DNA of 62,079 bases, filler included, from Deltaproteobacteria bacterium (GTDB lineage Bacteria; JAEEML01), in assembly GCA_016283195.1 (NCBI GenBank). It is 5 parts of 5 records of this genome, joined end to end, with 100 filler letters (N's around TTAATTAATTAA, not from the genome) between each part and the next. Parts side by side here need not be neighbours in the genome. Positions count along the whole stretch, not along the records: positions 1 to 22,940 come from JAEEML010000131.1; 4 more parts are not named here. One strand, written 5' to 3'. The number at the start of each line of letters is the position of its first letter. Position 1 is the first letter of the stretch. Shown piece after piece: positions 3,001-22,940 of the stretch. The notes under the pieces are model-generated. The model was not told where the DNA came from and ran no database searches. It saw only the letters and a program-made list of their open reading frames with translations. Position numbers and translations under genes: made by a program.

Positions 3001-3525
3001 GGTGCGGCGCGGATTATCAGCACGCCCAGCGTTACCACTTTGGATAATAAAAAAGCCCACATCGAACAGGGCATTGATATTCCTATCAGTGTGGTCTCGG
3101 CCGCAGGTGTCAATACGCGCTTTGTCTCGGCCTCGCTCGAACTCGAAGTCGAACCCCATATAACCAACGACGGCTCGGTTATGATGCAGCTTAAAGTCAC
3201 CAAGAGTGAGCCCGATTTCTCCAGAACCGGTGCCTCCGGCGACCCGACCATTCAGAAAAAGTCTGCCGAAACCGAAGTTTTGGTGCCCGATGGCGATACT
3301 ACTGTCGTCGGCGGTATACTTACCATCAATACCTCCAAAACCACGAGCAAGGTGCCTTTCCTGAGCAAGATCCCCATTTTGGGCTATCTCTTCAGAAGCA
3401 CACGTGAAGAAGATAACCGCGCCGAACTTCTCATCTTTGTCACTCCGCGAATTGTCAACAGAGACACCGCGCTGAACAGCTCTGCCGAATTAACATTCGA
3501 CAGCAAAAAGAATATGGAGAATTAA
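79..3525 (+). CDS. pilQ: Type IV pilus secretin PilQ with AMIN domains and a long coiled-coil insertion
   Basis: Signal peptide; AMIN motifs (LYDPMRVVVD, LYNPPRVVLD); N0 domain (ITIDLKDADVVNVIRLIAEVSGENI, LRNVPWEQALD); secretin C-terminus (QVRIEARIVEA, VPFLSKIPILGYLF, ELLIFVTPRIV). ATG at 79 follows GAGGA. Confidence 0.95.
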   Translation: MRTRSVKNLSLLVLTIAALGGIRAAEANKLLSVSAQPQAGGSVVTIATAETPVFTAFRLYDPMRVVVDVSEGDTGKFIAPVTINNGVVGDVAFRQFRAGSRSIGRITVEVLKNMRYEVRSNGKNIEVHLFDDGRGAIKEAALPPAPPALDRKALDEAKAAQKEAVEAVAAAQREQKEAKELKESLKQKDRELAIKENKLQAEHEALKAAEKEYNELKNQLDTAAKAERKALEAEINKSARQKEAAEQAYAKSLIDKAQLKDEISALKREKLKSEKAAETAALLAEEKLTKAEQALNKASSEKEALSKKLSKAEAELAKAEEQKNIAEEERARLKERKQELDKQRAEVARQLAEQRELAAAQTKERLALEKSIASFKEENSRLTNSLAESEKRNRHLEAEHKELLASQKSLEEEKAALSNEVALLKQNLAAKNEMTAASYGPAQVERVAQRKNGDIVLSFAGKLPRYESQMLYNPPRVVLDLEATARKATLPLNHQLSGQIVSRIRLGEHPGKLRVVLDLRQDKKNFQIKEEGRDIVISFTNSMPSYMRAADNPAAAGAALDVASRGRISKVSFNKSEGYSTIAITLDSKLAYTVDESPDKAYVLTISGAIIDADAERALDTTSFHGAVEMVSAYQESRNPPVVKVLVNMSEKSPYTLNYQGGRLVWEIADALSAPARGGLKMATPGAAGSFRAPSGALASTLTAAPASQKRITIDLKDADVVNVIRLIAEVSGENIITSDAVGGKITLKLRNVPWEQALDIILATKGYGKVRINNIIRIAPTQDLQKEKEMELSRRKAEQLVTDPVKKVVLINYAKAGELKNQLTPLLSERGSIQESERKNALIINELPDKIDEILELTKALDTPTPQVRIEARIVEASSNYLRQLGIQWGGRSTRSPVYGNATGLSFPNTMIFSGAADDETANQTGGVLTPSNYAVNLPAAIGSGSGGGIGISFGNVSGSAMLSLRISALEESGAARIISTPSVTTLDNKKAHIEQGIDIPISVVSAAGVNTRFVSASLELEVEPHITNDGSVMMQLKVTKSEPDFSRTGASGDPTIQKKSAETEVLVPDGDTTVVGGILTINTSKTTSKVPFLSKIPILGYLFRSTREEDNRAELLIFVTPRIVNRDTALNSSAELTFDSKKNMEN

Positions 3526-3526
3526 A

Positions 3527-4282
3527 ATGGCTAGCAAAATGTTAAAAAAATATATCAGCATATTAGCCGGTGCCTTTATGCCCCTGACTTTGAGCGCCTG
3601 TGTGCAGGATCAGGCTACCGGCCTGGTGGTGCGCGATGTGGTCTTTCCCGAAGCTCCGGATTGCGTAATTAAATCCGATGCCACCATCGTCATGAGTAAC
3701 GGCACGCTGGATTTGGTGCATCCTCTGGCCACCGATAATACTCCGGGAGCCAACGGTATCCCCAGTTATAAGCTGAATTTGCGCCTTAGAAACAACCTGT
3801 TGCCCAAAGATGACATGGAAAAGTTGCAAATCAACGAAGATAATATGGAATACCAATTTGACAGTATGGCCATCAATATTGTGGGCTACAATGTTTGTAT
3901 CAGCGCTCCGCAAGATGACGATCCTTATCGCCACTGCGAAGATATTCCCGAGGCTTTAAGCTACTTTGTCCCCTCCTCTGTTTACGTGGAGCCGGAAAAT
4001 AACGCCGTCGATTCGCTGGAAGTTATCAATGCCAATCAAATTATGGAATATTTTGGCGATATCTCCGCCATTGACCAGGTTGGCACCAAAATCATCGCCC
4101 ATGTGGTAGCGCTCGGCAAAACACAAAACGGTAAAACACTGCAATCAAATGAGTTTATCTTCCCCATTAAGATATGCGCTGCCTGCCGCAAAATAACTTG
4201 CCCCACCGGCTATGATATCTCTTTTGATAACGCTTGCTACACTTGGCAAGATGCCGGTCCCAGCTGCGTAGAATCCAAATAA
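3527..4282 (+). CDS. Hypothetical Cys-containing lipoprotein coupled to pilQ
   Basis: Starts right after the pilQ stop; lipobox LSAC; C-terminal CxxC and further Cys residues. Confidence 0.75.
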   Translation: MASKMLKKYISILAGAFMPLTLSACVQDQATGLVVRDVVFPEAPDCVIKSDATIVMSNGTLDLVHPLATDNTPGANGIPSYKLNLRLRNNLLPKDDMEKLQINEDNMEYQFDSMAINIVGYNVCISAPQDDDPYRHCEDIPEALSYFVPSSVYVEPENNAVDSLEVINANQIMEYFGDISAIDQVGTKIIAHVVALGKTQNGKTLQSNEFIFPIKICAACRKITCPTGYDISFDNACYTWQDAGPSCVESK

Positions 4283-4288
4283 TTACTT

Positions 4289-4819
4289 TTAAATCTTAAT
4301 AGTTACCGTAATCTTTCCCTTATAACTCACATCATCTTTGGGTGGAAAAAGGCCGCCGGCCGCACAGCTGATTTTAGCTCCGGCATTGATATAAGGAAGG
4401 AGATCTATTGATTCATCTATGGTTAAATTTAGAACTGTGCTCTTAGCGGAAAAATCTTTTATAAAAGCCAGCTTCTTTTTGGGTAAGCTAGCATCTTTGG
4501 CTTCGATGAAAATTTGCAATTCCTGAAAAAAATCAAAGAAATCTTCGTCTGATGGGTTGCTTTTGGCTGTATCTGTTATCTCCAGAGTAATGGCTTTTAA
4601 ATAGGCGGCACTGGCCGGGCCGGTCTCTCTGGCGGCAATTTCCTGATCAAGATTCAGGCTGAGCGCCATGGGCGGAAAGAAGGTATTGGCATCGAGGGCT
4701 GGGTTTAAAAGGTCTATGCCCTTTACGGTGTTTTCGGCAATCTCCTGGTCCAAATCAAAGCTAATGAGCCCGCAGGCCAAAATGGGTAAAAATAAAAGCG
4801 ATAAATAGCGGCGTTTCAT
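4289..4819 (-). CDS. Hypothetical lipoprotein
   Basis: GGAGG before ATG at 4819; MKRRYLSLLFLPILAC lipoprotein signal. Confidence 0.75.
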   Translation of the reverse strand: MKRRYLSLLFLPILACGLISFDLDQEIAENTVKGIDLLNPALDANTFFPPMALSLNLDQEIAARETGPASAAYLKAITLEITDTAKSNPSDEDFFDFFQELQIFIEAKDASLPKKKLAFIKDFSAKSTVLNLTIDESIDLLPYINAGAKISCAAGGLFPPKDDVSYKGKITVTIKI

Positions 4820-4922: not shown

Positions 4923-6272
4923 TTAAGCGCCGCTCTGCTCCCGCCCTTTAGATTTAAGCCAGCGTTTTAGCAAAAAGACGCAAAAATAGGGAAAGTTATA
5001 GATATTATTGGCTAATCCGATATTGCCCATGGAAAATTTTATGCCATAACTGATATCCGGATAGCGCTCACTTATAATGAGGGTTTTCAGTGATTTGGCA
5101 TTGCCGTTTTTAGCTTTTACCTCGATGGGCACCAGATTTTGGCTGTCTCGCACAAAAAAATCCTGCTCCAGCCGGGAATCTTCCCGCGCATAGTAAAAAA
5201 GGTCAAACCCCTGCTTTACGAGGCTCTCACCAACAATGCTTTCATAAAGCGCTCCCTTATAAATACCCAGATTGGCATTCACCCGCAAATCTTCCTGAGT
5301 GTCATCATCCAGCGTGGCCACCAACAGGCCGGTATCAAAAAAATATAGCTTATATTTAGAGGGATTATAATTACCCTTAAGTGGAAGCTCGGGGAAATTC
5401 AAAGAATAGGCAATATTTATCAGGCCGGCATCATTAAGCCACTCGATGCAGCCCCAATAATCGGCCGCCCGCCCGCCTTTGGCCACTTTGGAAATTTGAA
5501 ATTTTTTATTCTCTTTGGCAAGTTGCACCGGGATATGATTAAGCACATTGATAATTCTGGTTTGTTCCAGGCCCACAGCGTATTTGCGCACATCTTCCTT
5601 ATAATTTTGTATCAAAGCGCGCTGCAGCGCCAAAATGCCCTGAAAATTACCGCTCTCGATAAATTTAGCCGAAAGACGCGGCATACCGCCAATTACGCAA
5701 AAATCTCGGAAATGACCCATAAATACTTGCATTTCCAACTCGCTAAACTGGAGCAAATCTGTCATTTTCCGCAATAATTCGCCAATAACATCATCACTAT
5801 AGCCCTTGGCCCAGAGAAACTCTTCAAAATCGAGTGGCCGCATTTCATAATCCAGCTTATAGCCCACACTGTTACTCTCTATGCGCTTATAATTAAGCCC
5901 CAAAAGCGAACCGCTGCAAATAACGTCATATTCGCCGGCCAGTTTAAAAAATTTGAGAGCGGTGGCTATTTCCGGAAATTCTTGCAATTCATCAAAAACA
6001 ATCAGGGTTTTATGCGGCACAAATTTTTGCCCCGGATCTATCAGAGTGATATTTTTAATAATATTTTCCGCCAAATAGCCATCTTTAGTGATTTTTTTAA
6101 ACTTCTCGTCGGTTACAAAATTGATATAAACCGTATTTTCGTAATTTTCGGCAAAATGCAAAATGGAAGCTGTCTTACCGACTTGGCGAGCACCTTTAAC
6201 TATCAGCGGCAATTTGTCGGCATCCTGCTGCCATTTTAGGAGGAAATCGTCTATTTTGCGCTTTATGTACAT
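4923..6272 (-). CDS. AAA_14 ATPase with DUF4143 / PD-(D/E)XK-like C-terminus
   Basis: Walker A GARQVGKT, Walker B VFDELQ, GSLLG, GGMP, KLYFFDTGLL, C-terminal EQDF...PIEVK. Confidence 0.9.
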   Translation of the reverse strand: MYIKRKIDDFLLKWQQDADKLPLIVKGARQVGKTASILHFAENYENTVYINFVTDEKFKKITKDGYLAENIIKNITLIDPGQKFVPHKTLIVFDELQEFPEIATALKFFKLAGEYDVICSGSLLGLNYKRIESNSVGYKLDYEMRPLDFEEFLWAKGYSDDVIGELLRKMTDLLQFSELEMQVFMGHFRDFCVIGGMPRLSAKFIESGNFQGILALQRALIQNYKEDVRKYAVGLEQTRIINVLNHIPVQLAKENKKFQISKVAKGGRAADYWGCIEWLNDAGLINIAYSLNFPELPLKGNYNPSKYKLYFFDTGLLVATLDDDTQEDLRVNANLGIYKGALYESIVGESLVKQGFDLFYYAREDSRLEQDFFVRDSQNLVPIEVKAKNGNAKSLKTLIISERYPDISYGIKFSMGNIGLANNIYNFPYFCVFLLKRWLKSKGREQSGA

Positions 6273-6308
6273 ATCAGGCCTTTTTTATTGTATATTTTGC
6301 TCAGAATC

Positions 6309-6395
6309 ACAAAAATCCGAGCGACTTTTGTGATTTCTTATACAAAAAAATGAGCGACTTTTCAAGCTGCTAGCACAAAAAAATGAGCGACTTTT
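6309..6395. repeat. Three direct repeats ACAAAAAxxxGAGCGACTTTT with exact 33-bp period
   Basis: GAGCGACTTTT begins at 6319, 6352 and 6385, just upstream of the ATPase start at 6272. Confidence 0.9.
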
Positions 6396-16018: not shown

Positions 16019-16223
16019 AGTAGCCGCCACCTCCTGGTGTTATTCTAAAATAGAATAACATGAAATAAAATATAAATATTGGATATTTCATCCCCATAGC
16101 GGTATCAGCATATTGTAAGGGCGCGGCGCCTTGGCTAAAGGCCGCCGGCCATGCCGGCAAGCTATTGGGGGCAGCCAGGCATGGATCCCCCAACAATTAC
16201 CCCCCAAAACAGCGAGGTATTTT

Positions 16224-17378
16224 ATGAAAAAAATCACTCTCTTAGTCTTATGGCCATTATTTTTCGCCGCTTGCAGCAGCAATTCCACAGGCTCTCACGA
16301 TTGCCCGCAAAATTTAAACCCAAACGCTGCCCCCAAAGCAGTAAAACCGGCTAATGAAGCCAATAACCAAGGAGTAGAAGCCATGAATCTGGAGCAAAAA
16401 TGGGACAAAGTCTTTAAAGAGAGCAGCAAAGTAAAGCACCAAAAAGTCACTTTCCGTAACCGTTTCGGCATCACGCTCGCCGCTGATATGTATATTCCCC
16501 AAGATGCTGCCGCTAAGAAACTCCCGGCCATCGCTGTTTCCGGCCCCTTTGGCGCGGTGAAGGAGCAATCGTCCGGTTTATATGCTCAAACTCTGGCCGA
16601 GCGCGGCTTTTTAACCATCGCCTTTGACCCCTCTTTTACCGGCGAATCGGGCGGCGAGCCGCGCTACATGAACTCTCCGGATATCAATACCGAGGATTTT
16701 AGCGCTGCTGTTGATTTTCTTACGGCCCATGAGCTCGTAAATCCCGACGCCATCGGCATTTTGGGCATCTGCGGCTGGGGCGGCATGGCTATCAATGCGG
16801 CCGCCATCGACACGCGCATCAAAGCCACTGTGGCCTCAACCATGTACGACATGAGCCGCGTTACCGCTAAAGGCTACAACGATTCTGCCGATTCCGCCGC
16901 AGCCCGCCAGGCTCTCCGCAAGCAAATGAGCGATCAGCGCACTATTGATTATAAAAAGGGCACTTATGAGCGTGCCGGCGGCGTTATCGATCCGCTCCCC
17001 GATAACGCCCCGCAGTTTGTTAAAGACTATTATGCCTATTACAAAACGCCGCGCGGCTACCATAAGCGCTCCCTCAACTCCAACGAAGGCTGGGCCAAAA
17101 CCGCCGCCATCTCTCTGCTCAACAGTAAACTACTCGCTTATGCTGATGAAATTGTAAATCCCGTTCTCATCATCCACGGCGAAAAAGCCCACAGCCGCTA
17201 CTTTAGCGAGGGCGCTTTTGCCAAGATGACCGGCCGCCATGTAAAAAACGAAAACGCCACCGTCGGCAATAAGGAAATTATGATCATCCCCGGCGCCAAT
17301 CATGTGGATTTATATGATAATATGGAGAAAATCCCCTTTGATAAGCTGGAGAAGTTTTTTAGGGAGAATTTGAAATAA
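16224..17378 (+). CDS. Alpha/beta hydrolase (YcjY-like) with N-terminal lipoprotein signal
   Basis: GPFGAVKEQ, AFDPSFTGESGGEPR, GICGWGG nucleophile elbow, HVDLYD; FAAC lipobox. Confidence 0.85.
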   Translation: MKKITLLVLWPLFFAACSSNSTGSHDCPQNLNPNAAPKAVKPANEANNQGVEAMNLEQKWDKVFKESSKVKHQKVTFRNRFGITLAADMYIPQDAAAKKLPAIAVSGPFGAVKEQSSGLYAQTLAERGFLTIAFDPSFTGESGGEPRYMNSPDINTEDFSAAVDFLTAHELVNPDAIGILGICGWGGMAINAAAIDTRIKATVASTMYDMSRVTAKGYNDSADSAAARQALRKQMSDQRTIDYKKGTYERAGGVIDPLPDNAPQFVKDYYAYYKTPRGYHKRSLNSNEGWAKTAAISLLNSKLLAYADEIVNPVLIIHGEKAHSRYFSEGAFAKMTGRHVKNENATVGNKEIMIIPGANHVDLYDNMEKIPFDKLEKFFRENLK

Positions 17379-17380
17379 GC

Positions 17381-17480
17381 TCATAAAAACGGTGCCATGT
17401 AGGTAGGAATAAGGGTTGTAGCGCCGTTTTTAGCCAAATCTTTGGTGTAAATTAGGTATTCGGTGTAATCTTTGTCCCAA
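17381..17480 (-). pseudogene. 3' remnant of an AAA/DUF4143 ATPase gene
   Basis: Minus strand reads KDYTEYLIYTKDLAKNGATTLIPTYMAPFL*, resembling typical C-termini of this family; the rest of the gene is absent. Confidence 0.55.
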
Positions 17481-17534
17481 AGCAAAGCGTTACAAACAAA
17501 CCATTTTCCGCTTTCCCGCAAATTTTTTTGGTCT

Positions 17535-17591
17535 AAAAACACCGTACCCCCAAAATTTTTTCAGGCAAAAAACACCGTACCCCCGAAATTT
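17535..17591. repeat. Two direct repeats AAAAACACCGTACCCCCrAAATTT with 33-bp period
   Basis: ACCGTACCCCC begins at 17541 and 17574. Confidence 0.85.
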
Positions 17592-17617
17592 GCCGGCTAA
17601 AGCAGAGCCGCAGCGCC

Positions 17618-17699
17618 GGCGCCCTCACCCTGACAAGTAGCGAAAATTATTGGCATCTCGCCCCTCTCTGTTTTTACAAACAGCGAGGGGCGCCGCAGG
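17618..17699 (+). repeat. Dispersed hairpin repeat, copy 2
   Basis: GGCGCCCTCACCCTGACAAGTA...CCCCTCTCTGTTT-TTAC-AAACAGCGAGGGGCGCCGCAGG. Confidence 0.85.
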
Positions 17700-17885
17700 T
17701 TCAAATGGTTCACTTTCTTCAGGCAAACGACATGAATTTGCTCAAGTTTCCTCTTGCGCCGCTAGGGGCGCTATGCTAGCGTGACTTCATTCGCGTTTTG
17801 TGTTAAAATATTCACTGCGATTTGGAGGGCTTAATGGCTTCGCGCAAAAAAACTTAACAATATTAGCAAATTACCGGTGCTTACC

Positions 17886-17940
17886 GCCCTCACCCCGCCG
17901 CTTTGCGGCACCCCTCTCCATTTTTACAAATAGAGAGGGG
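17886..17940 (+). repeat. Dispersed hairpin repeat, copy 3
   Basis: GCCCTCACCCC-GCCGC-TTT-GCGGC-ACCCCTCTCCATTT-TTAC-AAATAGAGAGGGG. Confidence 0.85.
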
Positions 17941-17993
17941 AATTTACAATAATTCTCAGCAGTTGCTGGGGTAACGGCAAAGAGGAGGGCATC

Positions 17994-18278
17994 ATGGCTG
18001 CCGAATTTGTACTTACCTATATGAGCGGCGACCGGGCGCGCTGGGCCAGACAATTTCAGGATGAAATGGCCGATATAGATAGAAGATCCAGCGCGGCTGC
18101 GATATTGGAAAAGGGCATGGAAAAGGGCATGGAAAAAGGCCGGGCAGAAGGCCGGGCAGAAGGCCGAACAGAAGCAATGCTGGAACTAGTAAAGAGTAAA
18201 CTCCTCTCCGCCGCCGAAGCGGCCCGGCGCCTTAATATGTCCGAAAGCGAGCTAAAAAAGCTCTTGGAAGAGAACTAA
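17994..18278 (+). CDS. Small protein resembling the C-terminus of Rpn/YhgA-like nucleases
   Basis: AGGAGG RBS; EKGMEKGMEKGRAEGRAEGRTE repeats followed by an HTH-like LSAAEAARRLNMSESEL; no nuclease domain. Confidence 0.65.
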   Translation: MAAEFVLTYMSGDRARWARQFQDEMADIDRRSSAAAILEKGMEKGMEKGRAEGRAEGRTEAMLELVKSKLLSAAEAARRLNMSESELKKLLEEN

Positions 18279-18350
18279 GCCAACTATACTGTTCACTGTT
18301 CCGCTCCGCTATGGAGCCGTTCTCAACCACCGCATTTGGCTTTTTTTAAT

Positions 18351-18423
18351 CCCTCACCCCGACAAGTATTGGATTTTATTGGCATCTCTCCCCTCTCCGT
18401 TTTTACAAACAGCGAGGGGCTCA
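18351..18423 (+). repeat. Dispersed hairpin repeat, copy 4
   Basis: CCCTCACCCCGACAAGTATTGGATTTTATTGGCATCTCTCCCCTCTCCGTTT-TTAC-AAACAGCGAGGGGCTCA. Confidence 0.85.
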
Positions 18424-18484
18424 GGTTGCGTAACTTGGCGATAGCGCTGGATAATTAGGCAGAAGCGGGCAAAAAAGTTGGTGT

Positions 18485-19817: not shown

Positions 19818-21647
19818 TTAATTTAAGCCCCAACCTTCATAAAGAATTTTTAGCCGATTTTCTTGCAGTTGTTGGCATTCTTTAGCAGTATAATTTTCAA
19901 AAGCAAAACTAGCGCGGGTAATAATATAGCTGGAGAAACTCTTAGTTCTTGATGTATTTTCCTTTTTAACATGATAAGCGTGATTGCGGTTTGATGTATT
20001 TTTCCCACTAGAAATCAAGCATAAATTTCCAATTCTATGTAACCAGTATTTTCTTTCATCTTCCGTCCATTTTTTCTGCCAATATGAGTCAGAATCATTT
20101 TGAGGTAAAACGTGTTCTATAGTGATTTTTTTCCCGCTATTCATATCTGAATAGGCACTTTCATTCCGATCACTACACCATTGGTTGAGATGGAGCAGAA
20201 TATACTTTGTAAAAACCGCGCCCAATGAATCATATATTGGCCCATCAAGCATCTCTCTAAAATTCTTTTTCTCATCATCTGTTAGCTTTAAAGACAAGAG
20301 ATTTTCTGAAGTAGGCGGAGTTTCCTTAAGAGCCTTAATTTCTTTAATGATTTTGAAATAACGACTCAAACGGTGTGAGCGCCCTACCTTTTTTAACCTA
20401 AAATAGGTTGCTAATGCTTCCATTCTTTGCAACAAAGAAGAAAACTGTTCTCGGAGTTCTTTGCAGTTGGGATCTGCTAAACGAGCATTATCAAAACTAC
20501 GCTTAAGACACATGGTAACTGGTACCCAATCAGAATTCTCATGGGTATTTAAAAATGCAATCATACGGTAAATATCTTTTGCACAGGTTTCTTCAAATAC
20601 TTTAATTTTATTTTTTTTATCATCGTCATTCTCTGCAAAAATATCTTTTACGTAATCATCAATATTTTTAACAAACATAAAATGAGGAACTGTTTGAATC
20701 AGTTTTTGTAAAAAGGTGTAATAATCCTTCTCACCATTTTTATCATTCGGAATCAATTCTATATAATCATTGATAAGAGCTACCGAAGACTTTTTCTCCA
20801 TCTGTTCCATACGATACTGAATTAACATATCATTAAAAACTTCAGAATTTTCCAATTGGCTTTCCATATTCTGCCATTGTTGCACAGCATAATCCTTGTC
20901 ACTCTGCAGTTCACCAATTACGCGAGCTTTTATAATATCGACATCCTGCAAAGCCATTCCACGTGCATTCAAAGTCGAGAAAATACCAATAGCTATCTGA
21001 ACATTTGTTGTTTCTACTCGAACAATTGCACAATAGTCTAATATATGCCAAGCAAAAGCATCTAGTTTTTCACAATCATTTTTAAAACTATCAGCTAAAC
21101 ATTCTTCAAGTAACCATTTTATATTATCACGCATATGCGCTGATGCTGGTGAACCTGGGGATTGGTTTTTAATAGTGTCTTCGATCATATTAGGTGTTTG
21201 AAGATTCTGCAAATAACAATTGTCCAATTTATTAGTATTTATAACAATCCGGCGCGAAGCTTTTCTGTGCCACTCTTCTTCATTCTCAATGCTTGGGTTT
21301 CTAATTTTTGATATTCTATTTGCATCATAATTACATTTTTCTAGTTGAAGAAGAATGGCCGTCAGAAGCAACTGCAGAGATATAATACGTTGTTGTCCAT
21401 CTATAACTTCATAATATTTTTGTGTTTTTTTTGACTTCTTTTCTTGTTCAGCCAGAACAATGCATCCAAGAAAATATTCATCCTCCTTTCTGCTGATAAA
21501 ATGATCGTATATATCATCAAATAGCTGACCTACCTTTTCAGTATCCCACACATAAGGACGCTGATAGTAGGGTATTTCATAGACATTCTCTTCTTCAAAC
21601 AATTCACGAATCGAATTAACGGCAGCTTTAAAATTCTCTTCAGCCAT
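19818..21647 (-). CDS. DUF262-DUF1524 protein (GmrSD/SspE-like NTPase-HNH nuclease)
   Basis: IPYYQRPYVW, VIDGQQR, FSTLNARG, then TIEHVLPQ and IGNLCLI HNH-type motifs; GAGGAGG RBS; visibly AT-rich. Confidence 0.9.
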   Translation of the reverse strand: MAEENFKAAVNSIRELFEEENVYEIPYYQRPYVWDTEKVGQLFDDIYDHFISRKEDEYFLGCIVLAEQEKKSKKTQKYYEVIDGQQRIISLQLLLTAILLQLEKCNYDANRISKIRNPSIENEEEWHRKASRRIVINTNKLDNCYLQNLQTPNMIEDTIKNQSPGSPASAHMRDNIKWLLEECLADSFKNDCEKLDAFAWHILDYCAIVRVETTNVQIAIGIFSTLNARGMALQDVDIIKARVIGELQSDKDYAVQQWQNMESQLENSEVFNDMLIQYRMEQMEKKSSVALINDYIELIPNDKNGEKDYYTFLQKLIQTVPHFMFVKNIDDYVKDIFAENDDDKKNKIKVFEETCAKDIYRMIAFLNTHENSDWVPVTMCLKRSFDNARLADPNCKELREQFSSLLQRMEALATYFRLKKVGRSHRLSRYFKIIKEIKALKETPPTSENLLSLKLTDDEKKNFREMLDGPIYDSLGAVFTKYILLHLNQWCSDRNESAYSDMNSGKKITIEHVLPQNDSDSYWQKKWTEDERKYWLHRIGNLCLISSGKNTSNRNHAYHVKKENTSRTKSFSSYIITRASFAFENYTAKECQQLQENRLKILYEGWGLN

Positions 21648-21741
21648 TTCTAACCTCCTCATGGAAATGTCAAGTTTAAATTATTGCATGTAAACAGCAC
21701 AGCATACAATAATTCACACACATATACCAAGTTTATGCATT

Positions 21742-22514
21742 AAGCAACACATAAATATCGGTGCCGAAATTAAGGGGCTGCATAGAAAAGATGTCCCGGA
21801 AATCCCGCCAGAGGTAATTCGTGAACTTATTGTAAACGCCGTAATGCACAGGAACTATCTGGCGCATTCCAACATCCAGGTTTGCATTTTTGATGACCGT
21901 ATTGAAATAACCAATCCAGGTGGTTTATATGGCGGCCTGACAATGGAAAAAATGCTCTCCGGAATTTCCAGTATTAGAAATGAATTAATTGCCGATATCT
22001 TTCTAAAAATGGGCATTGTGGAAAAATGGGGAACGGGAATAAAACGAGTCAGAGAACTTTGCCAAGAAAGCGGCTTAAGCGATGTTGAATATTCTGCGGA
22101 TGAAGATTTCTTTACCGCAGTGGTTCATAGGCCCAAAAAGTTCCCCAAAGTTCCCCAAAGTTCCCCAAAGTTCTCCAAAAGTTCACCCAAAGTTCCCCGA
22201 AGTTCCCCAAAAGTTCACCCAAAGTTCCCCGAAGTTCCCCAAAAGTTCACCCAAAGTTCCCCGAAGTTTCCCAAAAGTTCACCCAAAGTTTCCCGAAAAA
22301 GATACCAGAAAATGCGCTACTAACATTAGAAGAGCTAAAGAAAAATCCCAAGGCATCTTCGACGGAGATTTCCGCAGTTATTGGTATAACCTCAAGAGCG
22401 GTAAAGAAGCATTTCGCAATTTTAAAAGAACATGGACTAATCGAATATGTTGGAGGCAGTAGAGGCGGACATTGGATTATAAAAGATGAGCCTGCTGAAC
22501 CTTACCATTCCTAA
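21742..22514 (+). pseudogene. 5'-truncated, frameshifted ATP-binding/HATPase_c_4 protein with C-terminal winged HTH
   Basis: IRELIVNAVMHRNY, FDDRIEITNPGGL, EKWGTGI; the wHTH (ISAVIGITSRAVKKHFAILKEHGLIEYVGGSRGGHW) lies in another frame at 22302-22514. Confidence 0.75.
22138..22295 (+). repeat. Tandem minisatellite: 15 AAGTT-initiated units of 10/11 bp including four 32-bp super-repeats
   Basis: AAGTTCCCCA-type units; super-repeats start at 22168, 22200, 22232 and 22264. Confidence 0.92.
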
Positions 22515-22540
22515 GTAGCCTTTCTAAAGGCGCACCTTGC

Positions 22541-22593
22541 CATTTGTAAAATTAAAGATGGGCAAGATGCCAATAAATTCCAATACTTGTCAG
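22541..22593 (-). repeat. Dispersed hairpin repeat, degenerate copy 5
   Basis: Reverse complement CTGACAAGTATTGGAATTTATTGGCATCTTGCCCATCTTTAATTTTACAAATG matches copies 2 and 4. Confidence 0.75.
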
Positions 22594-22612
22594 TGTTGGT
22601 ACCTCCGTTTGA

Positions 22613-22697
22613 TTGAAATAATGCATGATTTTGACGGATCCTATGTTGAAATAATGCGCAATTTTGGCTAACTGCATGTTGAAATAATGCGTAATTT
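22613..22697. repeat. Three direct repeats TTGAAATAATGC with exact 33-bp period
   Basis: Cores begin at 22613, 22646 and 22679; minus-strand GGAGGT at 22601-22606 follows them. Confidence 0.9.
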
Positions 22698-22763
22698 CGG
22701 CAAATCGCCGCTGGGCGCTCACCTTATGGCGCTAGGCTGCCCATAGTGCTCTCAAATTTTCTA

Positions 22764-22834: not shown

Positions 22835-22940
22835 ATGAATTCAGTAAGTGAACTCACCATGGCCCGCAAAAACGAAATTATCGCCGCTTGCCGGCAGCTC
22901 TATCAGACTAAATCCTTCCGGGAAATCACTATTAAGGATA
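22835..22940 (+). CDS. TetR/AcrR-family regulator, N-terminal fragment cut by the gap
   Basis: MNSVSELTMARKNEIIAACRQLYQTKSFREITIKD matches a TetR N-terminal helix pattern; GGAG RBS. Confidence 0.75.

Follow-up and report, generated by a model that had tools for sequence, protein, structure and literature searches.

We have studied a gene for a predicted ATPase-nuclease in a 62,079-base stretch of DNA from a deltaproteobacterial genome (assembly GCA_016283195.1), together with the short repeats that immediately precede it. The stretch, here called the window, consists of several contigs joined together, and the gene lies within contig C179, which is window 1-22940 (C and L numbers are our handles for contigs of this genome and for loci of relatives, respectively). 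It is encoded on the minus strand at 4923-6272, and specifies a protein of 449 amino acids with AAA_14 and DUF4143 domains that is a member of PDC-S01, a candidate defense family. Upstream of the gene, three direct repeats are set exactly 33 bp apart. Arrays of similar layout, each with a sequence of its own, lie before five paralogues in the same genome, and nearly all of the relatives analyzed in other species have upstream repeats of closely similar period. We consider it probable that the array is an operator that the gene provides for itself, bound by the winged helix of the encoded protein for autoregulation.

The pattern ACAAAAANNNGAGCGACTTTT, allowing up to one mismatch, has three matches in the 62,079 bases of the window, all on the plus strand (6309, 6342 and 6375), and none in 100 shuffles of the window. 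An independent repeat search gave the same three copies, with spacings of 33 and 33 bp. The sequence-only reading of this DNA had described three copies of ~21 bp directly before the start of the ATPase gene, and this description is borne out. The GAGCGAC cores start at 6319, 6352 and 6385. Moving away from the ATG (6272, minus strand), a leader of 35 nt that we presume to be the promoter zone (6273-6307) is followed by repeat unit 1 (6308-6329; AAAAGTCGCTCGGATTTTTGTG in the sense of the gene), which also forms part of a 13-nt inverted repeat. Unit 2 (6341-6362; AAAAGTCGCTCATTTTTTTGTA) is 33 bp upstream of unit 1, and the distal unit 3 (6374-6395; AAAAGTCGCTCATTTTTTTGTG) is 33 bp upstream of unit 2, all three being read on the minus strand. 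The repeats are located 36-123 bp upstream of the ATG. In the sense of the gene the motif of ~21 bp is AAAAGTCGCTC(A/G)..TTTTTGT(G/A), and the copies agree at 66-79% of positions over 29 nt. Tandem Repeats Finder did not report this array in either the window (minimum score 30) or the genome (minimum score 40), because only about two-thirds of each 33-bp unit is conserved. The G+C content of the cassette is 0.40-0.45, compared with 0.52-0.55 for its neighbors.

An RNA reading of the array was also considered. No Rfam family was matched on window 1-22940. Folded as RNA, the array has a z-score of -2.5, to which only units 1 and 3 contribute through their dyad symmetry, and this reading was dropped because the units of most relatives are not dyad-symmetric.

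The genome of 3.2 Mb contains 14 DUF4143 genes, of which the window gene is the only one on contig C179. A tblastn search with the window protein gave five clear paralogues of 26-37% identity (on C142, C45 and C116, and two on C151). All five have three or four direct repeats just upstream of the start codon, at a spacing of 32-34 bp and each with its own sequence. When the motifs of the six arrays were sought throughout the genome with mismatches allowed, each was confined to its own array, save for single matches with two or three mismatches elsewhere for two of the six, which we take to be chance. Tandem Repeats Finder lists about 12 arrays with a period of 33 or 34 bp in the whole genome, and five of these are paralogue arrays.

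A profile of the six paralogues identified 582 relatives in species-representative genomes, from which the best 80 loci were taken, with proteins 42-65% identical to that of the window. They span Bacillota, Bacteroidota, Spirochaetota, Lentisphaerae, Kiritimatiellia and Opitutales, and include one Methanomethylophilaceae archaeon. The periodicity was measured as the best-scoring self-match at lags of 8-80 bp in the 250 bp before the start codon, for which 79 loci were usable. The best lag was 31-33 bp in 68 of these, 64-66 bp in eight, and another value in three. Lags of 31-34 or 64-66 bp were found upstream in 76 of 79 loci, compared with 12 of 72 regions downstream and six of 67 regions located 750-1000 bp upstream. 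Requiring in addition a score of at least 12 left 63 of 79 upstream, three of 72 downstream and none of 67 far upstream. The enrichment of the period over control regions, a check for which the sequence-only reading had asked, is plain despite the kinship of the loci. Of the three remaining downstream hits, one (L067) stems from the private array of a tandem second paralogue; the DUF4143 gene of the latter occupies 3100-4323 of that locus, with a 33-bp array of its own at 2830-2940.

Within the arrays the spacing between neighboring copies was 32 bp in 95 cases, 33 bp in 35, 31 bp in seven and 34 bp in four. Two further methods were applied to 85 upstream regions, i.e., the 79 together with the six of this genome. 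Using 14-mers, there were at least two phased copies in 70 regions and at least three in 52, while chains of anchors were obtained in 74. Array size ranges from three to six copies. Locus L051 contains six units at 32 bp that alternate between GAAAATGTG and GAATTTTGTG, generating a super-period of 64 bp, and this array appears to have been amplified.

A cultured strain also carries such an array. L129 (locus 1360-1500) is on plasmid pRUMAL01 of Ruminococcus albus 7, where RUMAL_RS17400 is an orthologue with 62.9% identity. It has four units of ~32 bp, the last of which lies between TTGACT and TATGAT. Relatives are present on 61 plasmid records and on 13 phage-labeled records, all but one of the latter being human fecal fragments, and most of the loci lie on contigs that carry no plasmid label.

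The repeat units share a common grammar. When aligned on the G of GTG, each has a clade-specific core of 6-9 bp followed by about five A/T bases and then GTG, often GTGA. All units are direct repeats that point toward the gene. Identity between neighboring copies was calculated for 57 loci, with the lag fixed for each locus and only the GTG anchor imposed. The identity is 0.54-0.88 at positions -17 to -1 and ~0.55-0.6 at +3 to +5, and 0.17-0.42 over the remaining 10-11 bp of spacer. Because the identity is confined to a block of ~22 bp, the repeats have the character of a selected binding site with a free spacer, and not that of a decaying duplication.

In many of the loci the array is also in register with the promoter. 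A sigma-70-like promoter could be placed in 46 of the 74 loci with anchor chains. A count of loci with the anchor inside the promoter (29 observed, against a random-phase mean of 37) was uninformative, because a period of 32 bp puts the anchor there at almost any phase, and the distance to the -10 box was therefore used. The -10 hexamer starts 1-4 bp after the anchor G in 16 of the 46 loci and 32-36 bp after it in nine, giving 25 of 46 in phase where a fraction of 5/32 is expected. In L013 the whole spacer from TTGACA to TATAAT is occupied by the proximal unit, and in L064 the sequence GTGATATAAT merges the unit with an extended -10 box.

The extent of the conserved cassette was examined using 18 pairs among the 80 loci that are 80% or more identical in nucleotide sequence for 1 kb or longer. 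Three of the pairs involve a truncated gene, and 1.1-1.5 kb of flanking sequence was available on most sides. In all 18 the alignment begins 72-234 bp before the ATG and takes in those repeats that remain alignable. Where the gene is intact, the alignment stops between about -27 and +53 relative to the stop codon, with one pair reaching +150. Since the similarity stops at the array and at the stop codon, the array and open reading frame are an inherited and exchanged unit. No protein other than the ATPase accompanies the array, and this is our main argument that the ATPase would be what binds there.

The window protein matches Pfam AAA_14 at residues 22-153 (E = 5.5e-24, 85 bits against a cut-off of 27) and DUF4143 at residues 226-387 (E = 1.6e-29, 103.2 bits against a cut-off of 28.1), and the PADLOC model for PDC-S01 (PDLC04786) over residues 1-438 (E = 8.5e-149, 494 bits). 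The active-site residues are preserved among the 80 sequences. The Walker A and B motifs are intact, with G27, R29, G32, K33, D94 and E95 invariant, as are E344 and E384-V385-K386 of the PD-(D/E)xK nuclease, in which D371 is present in at least 90%. Also invariant are G195, G196 and P198, forming a GG.P motif that sits at the place of the GxP motif of the STAND (signal transduction ATPases with numerous domains) NTPases.

An AlphaFold2 model calculated from the 80 sequences has a mean predicted local distance difference test score (pLDDT) of 90.7. The predicted fold is like that of the origin recognition complex (ORC) and STAND proteins, having an NTPase domain, a helical domain and a winged helix (residues 1-322), followed by a C-terminal PD-(D/E)xK nuclease; fold matches to the model span residues 1-322 and 1-342. 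Residues 1-322 match the archaeal ATPase plus winged-helix proteins 2qen (Z = 16.4) and 2fna (Z = 15.5), CED-4 and plant nucleotide-binding leucine-rich repeat proteins (NLRs; Z = 12-14, with 4m9s at 13.9) and EfAvs5 (9jap, Z = 11.4). ORC2 and Cdc6-Orc1 are matched with Z = 10-11, including 1w5t at 11.1 for residues 1-322 and the DNA-bound 2qby (2qby_A) at 10.2 over residues 1-323. In Pfam the protein matched AAA_14 and DUF4143 only. The Cdc6 and ORC families of Pfam did not match the window protein at E ≤ 0.001, NCBIfam gave no match, and the sole match in a profile search of the Protein Data Bank was the P-loop stretch of midasin. A C-terminal repeat sensor (TPR, WD40 or LRR) is absent from both the Pfam matches and the model, the protein ending after the nuclease.

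Variation is found where the protein would be expected to read the DNA. In the predicted recognition helix, the residues leading up to the conserved W278-L279 differ among paralogues and clades, and the variants go with classes of repeat motif. The variant GARFRDYRGC is found with TTCGCTCAT-W5-GTG, GARNREY.GT with GGAAWWWTGTGAT, and GAKF.DYRG with ...TTTTTTAGT. In a tree built without the helix columns the GAKF variant occurs at two places (L039 and the L069 group), and in both the units end in AGT and not GTG. This recurrence is suggestive only. The sequence-only reading had asked if the repeat motif tracks the phylogeny of the protein; it follows the protein to the extent that motif classes follow the variants of the recognition helix, a correspondence for which shared ancestry could largely account.

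Among DUF4143 proteins, arrays with a spacing of 32-34 bp characterize a single clade; other clades show repeats at 22 bp or palindromes. Within this genome, the paralogue on C57 has three repeats at 22 bp and not 32-34 bp, that on C3 has a 72-bp direct repeat together with an inverted repeat, and several members of a second clade carry short palindromes close to the start. Two genes of that other clade (C33 and C49) have a near-identical palindrome (TGTGGCTAGCCACA and TGTGGTTAGCCACA, respectively) ~25-30 bp before the DUF4143 start, and the operators of that clade may therefore not all be private. Among 30 loci drawn from 60 other genomes there were many differing palindromes and a few direct repeats of 32-33 bp near the start, and the same was true of 15 evaluable paralogues in one genome with 29 copies. 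Using a crude measure of arm length, palindromes with arms of at least 9 nt were found upstream in six of 24 loci and downstream in five of 22, i.e., no enrichment. Because this measure did not separate the loci from the controls, we make no claim beyond the clade with the arrays. The earlier proposal that each ATPase paralogue has a private phased array thus holds for five further paralogues of this genome and for 76 of 79 loci elsewhere, and has to be narrowed from all AAA_14/DUF4143 proteins to one clade.

In the mechanism that we propose, each unit of ~22 bp would dock one molecule of the ATPase-nuclease via its winged-helix domain. Because the units are co-oriented and three helical turns apart, three or four molecules could be arranged head to tail on one face of the DNA, in the way that AAA+/ORC-type proteins assemble. 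Occupancy of the array would control transcription of the gene itself, since the proximal unit overlaps the promoter, and would keep a potentially harmful nuclease at a low level. Regulation is most likely to be repression, given the location of the proximal unit within the core promoter or right against it. Array and gene would constitute a compact cassette moving between genomes, and the private cores would insulate the many paralogues within one cell from each other. Binding by the protein, its cooperativity, the sign of regulation and any role of ATP are what we infer from the layout and the predicted fold. Of the three roles previously suggested for such arrays (autoregulation, DNA loading or mobility), it is autoregulation that is favored, by the placement of the proximal unit of the relatives in the promoter and its phase-locking to the -10 box; the other two are weaker.

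A number of points weigh against this interpretation. The loci are kin, so that independence is overstated in both the Fisher test of the upstream lag enrichment (p ~1e-35) and the binomial test of the -10 phase (p = 1.6e-9), and the match of helix variant with motif class can largely be the result of shared ancestry. No sigma-70 consensus promoter was found before the window gene, the overlap of array and promoter being seen in the relatives. Upstream of the paralogue on C142 the array is placed before the -35 box and merely touches it, a position that would also fit activation. By calculation for B-DNA, sites 32 bp apart are separated by ~108 Å, which is far for contact between protomers of 50 kDa unless the DNA is bent or a protomer covers the whole unit. 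Lastly, 33-bp arrays also occur with no ATPase gene nearby (window 17520 and 22613, C5:2396 and C125:6467).

Other explanations of the array have been weighed against autoregulation. It might be a platform for assembly or loading that nucleates an ATP-dependent head-to-tail oligomer, with control of transcription not its main function; the oligomer would park or license the nuclease, keeping it, for example, inactive on self DNA until infection disturbs it. The predicted similarity to ORC/Cdc6 and STAND NTPases, which oligomerize, would suit such a role, as would repeats that are direct and not inverted, strictly phased and present in 3-6 copies, and a nuclease with invariant active-site residues in a family that is a defense candidate. 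Yet the phase-locking of the proximal unit to the -10 box is most simply explained by regulation, the protein lacks a known sensor domain or trigger, and its oligomerization is putative. We regard this explanation as unlikely. Less likely still is that the repeats are a site of mobility, where a selfish single-gene cassette is moved or copied in cis by its own ATPase-nuclease. In its favor, nucleotide similarity between species is lost a short way past the aligned repeats and again at the stop codon, the flanks being unrelated; copies of 42-65% identity are spread across phyla and domains and also found on plasmids, and the window cassette is lower in G+C than its neighbors. Against this, the motif is not found a second time at the 3′ end, nor anywhere else in the genome except as near-matches at chance level, and the boundaries inspected have neither terminal inverted repeats nor target duplications. 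It is doubtful, too, that the array is more than an operator and itself a part of the machine, a sequence-addressed assembly site for an ATP-dependent head-to-tail oligomer, either parking and licensing the nuclease for defense or acting as a cis site for spread of the cassette; if this were so, PDC-S01 would represent a type of sequence-specific, DNA-loaded system that is undescribed among defense or mobile elements.

The repeats might alternatively be bound by a host factor. The W5-GTG(A) part of the unit is common to many clades, and the TGTGA shared by the units resembles a half-site of CRP/FNR type. Each paralogue, however, has a core of its own, the sites repeat directly at 32-33 bp instead of forming inverted pairs, and the layout persists in different phyla and an archaeon, which would not share one regulator, so that we find a host factor very improbable. 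The least credible proposal, already disfavored by the data, is that these are functionless tandem duplications of an AT-rich promoter segment that arose neutrally. The copies are indeed short and AT-rich, Tandem Repeats Finder passes over the window array, and other 33-bp arrays exist with no ATPase gene alongside; but position, orientation and period would hardly be kept in 76 of 79 loci, nor conservation be limited to ~22 bp of each unit while the spacer stays at background, if the duplications were neutral.

Two further arrays of 33-bp period in the window had been noted in the earlier reading as possible partners of ATPase paralogues. Both exist (17520-17591 and 22613-22697), and neither adjoins such a gene. 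The array at 17520-17591 has 2.2 copies of a unit that departs from the core-W5-GTG grammar, and lies between an alpha/beta-hydrolase gene (16131-17378, plus strand) and elements resembling repetitive extragenic palindromes (REP). Six-frame translation of 17380-18300 revealed no remnant of DUF4143. That at 22613-22697 has 2.6 copies of units starting TTGAAA, close to the end of the contig at 22940, and is bordered by the end of a truncated HATPase_c_4 gene on one side and by the start of a TetR-like gene (22836) on the other; the TetR-like gene has its own pair of TGACACGGTGTCAGC palindromes. This array may be a vestigial operator array. When the regions 17500-17620 and 22590-22720 were sought in 60 other genomes only short matches at chance level were found; the genome has no close relative among those 60, because all were kin only at the level of 'same domain'.

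Some other features of the genome were observed. A perfect 33-bp array of 2.4 copies is found at C5:2396-2475, downstream of a gene for an ATPase of 551 amino acids that is taken from its sequence to be of AAA-ATPase_like/PDDEXK_9 type, and its unit TGGATTTCGTC resembles the operator TGGATTTCGTG of L078. The REP-like element (GGCGCCCTCACCC ... TTTTTACAAA ... GCGAGGGG) is dispersed in intergenic DNA of the genome, with sites at window 17600-17700, 17890-17960 and 18390-18450, and upstream of the C36 paralogue. The truncated HATPase_c_4 gene (21844-22523) contains a coding tandem repeat of 10/32 bp (22137-22297) and has two overlapping frames, and beside it is a GmrSD type IV restriction gene (19818-21662, minus strand). 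The neighborhood of these two genes looks like a defense island.

The combination of gene and array has counterparts in known systems. In plasmids such as P1, F, pPS10 and RK2, helically phased direct repeats, the iterons, adjoin the gene of the winged-helix Rep initiator that binds them. These systems are autoregulated, with private specificity, and the iterons are usually ~17-22 bp in length at a spacing of ~22 bp. Rep proteins are not known to be ATPases or nucleases. What the two have in common is a phased set of direct repeats next to the gene for its binding protein, which here is a putative one. The window protein differs in not belonging to a family of Rep-type initiators, its Pfam matches being AAA_14 and DUF4143 only, and the cassettes are found here on chromosomal contigs with up to 14 in a genome; no origin features were noticed, though no search was aimed at them. 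Archaeal Orc1/Cdc6 proteins and their origin recognition box (ORB) elements are alike in the predicted fold of AAA+ module and winged helix (1w5t and 2qby), and in having sites beside their own gene. DnaA is likewise an ATP-binding, DNA-binding protein that is autoregulated, with DnaA boxes in the dnaA promoter. Compared with Orc1/Cdc6 and DnaA, the window protein adds a C-terminal nuclease, has many paralogues per genome and is not a member of their sequence families. The STAND NTPases (Avs and CED-4/Apaf-1/NLR proteins) resemble it in the predicted core of nucleotide-binding domain, helical domain and winged helix (4m9s and 9jap), which in the window protein is likewise fused to a nuclease effector; it differs from them in having no C-terminal repeat sensor. 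We know of no operator arrays for Avs.

The known system to which the protein corresponds is PDC-S01 (AAA_14 plus DUF4143; COG1373), which it matches end to end and in both Pfam domains. According to the available text of the relevant sources, PDC-S01 ranks fourth in frequency among defense candidates across prokaryotes, most candidates still awaiting validation (PMC12988326), and is the single defense locus found most often in rumen genomes (PMC13356809), while PMC3424549 lists DUF4143 among the PD-(D/E)XK families, with function unknown. These three sources treat the family only as an abundant, untested candidate that pairs an ATPase with PD-(D/E)xK. In E. coli B, with T7, T5 and T4, a PDC-S01 member was reportedly outside the four of eight candidates that were protective (bioRxiv 10.1101/2024.09.26.614923). 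None of these four sources, in the text available, mentions upstream repeats or sequence-specific DNA binding, and the preprint in which the candidates were first presented has in its main text none of the terms PDC-S01, S01 or DUF4143. The sequence-only reading knew of no description of the pairing of ATPase and array. Consistent with this, we found no description of upstream repeats for the AAA_14/DUF4143/COG1373/PDC-S01 family in the literature searched, supplements aside.

The arrays bear upon the way in which these proteins are studied. Heterologous tests that drop the native upstream region may differ in expression from those that keep it, and this calls for caution. The cultured Ruminococcus albus 7, with RUMAL_RS17400 on pRUMAL01, is a usable experimental model. 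For each member of the family the array gives a predicted DNA-binding specificity, together with a predicted regulatory circuit. A private phased array that travels with its gene would thus be the first concrete handle on PDC-S01, an abundant family of unknown function.

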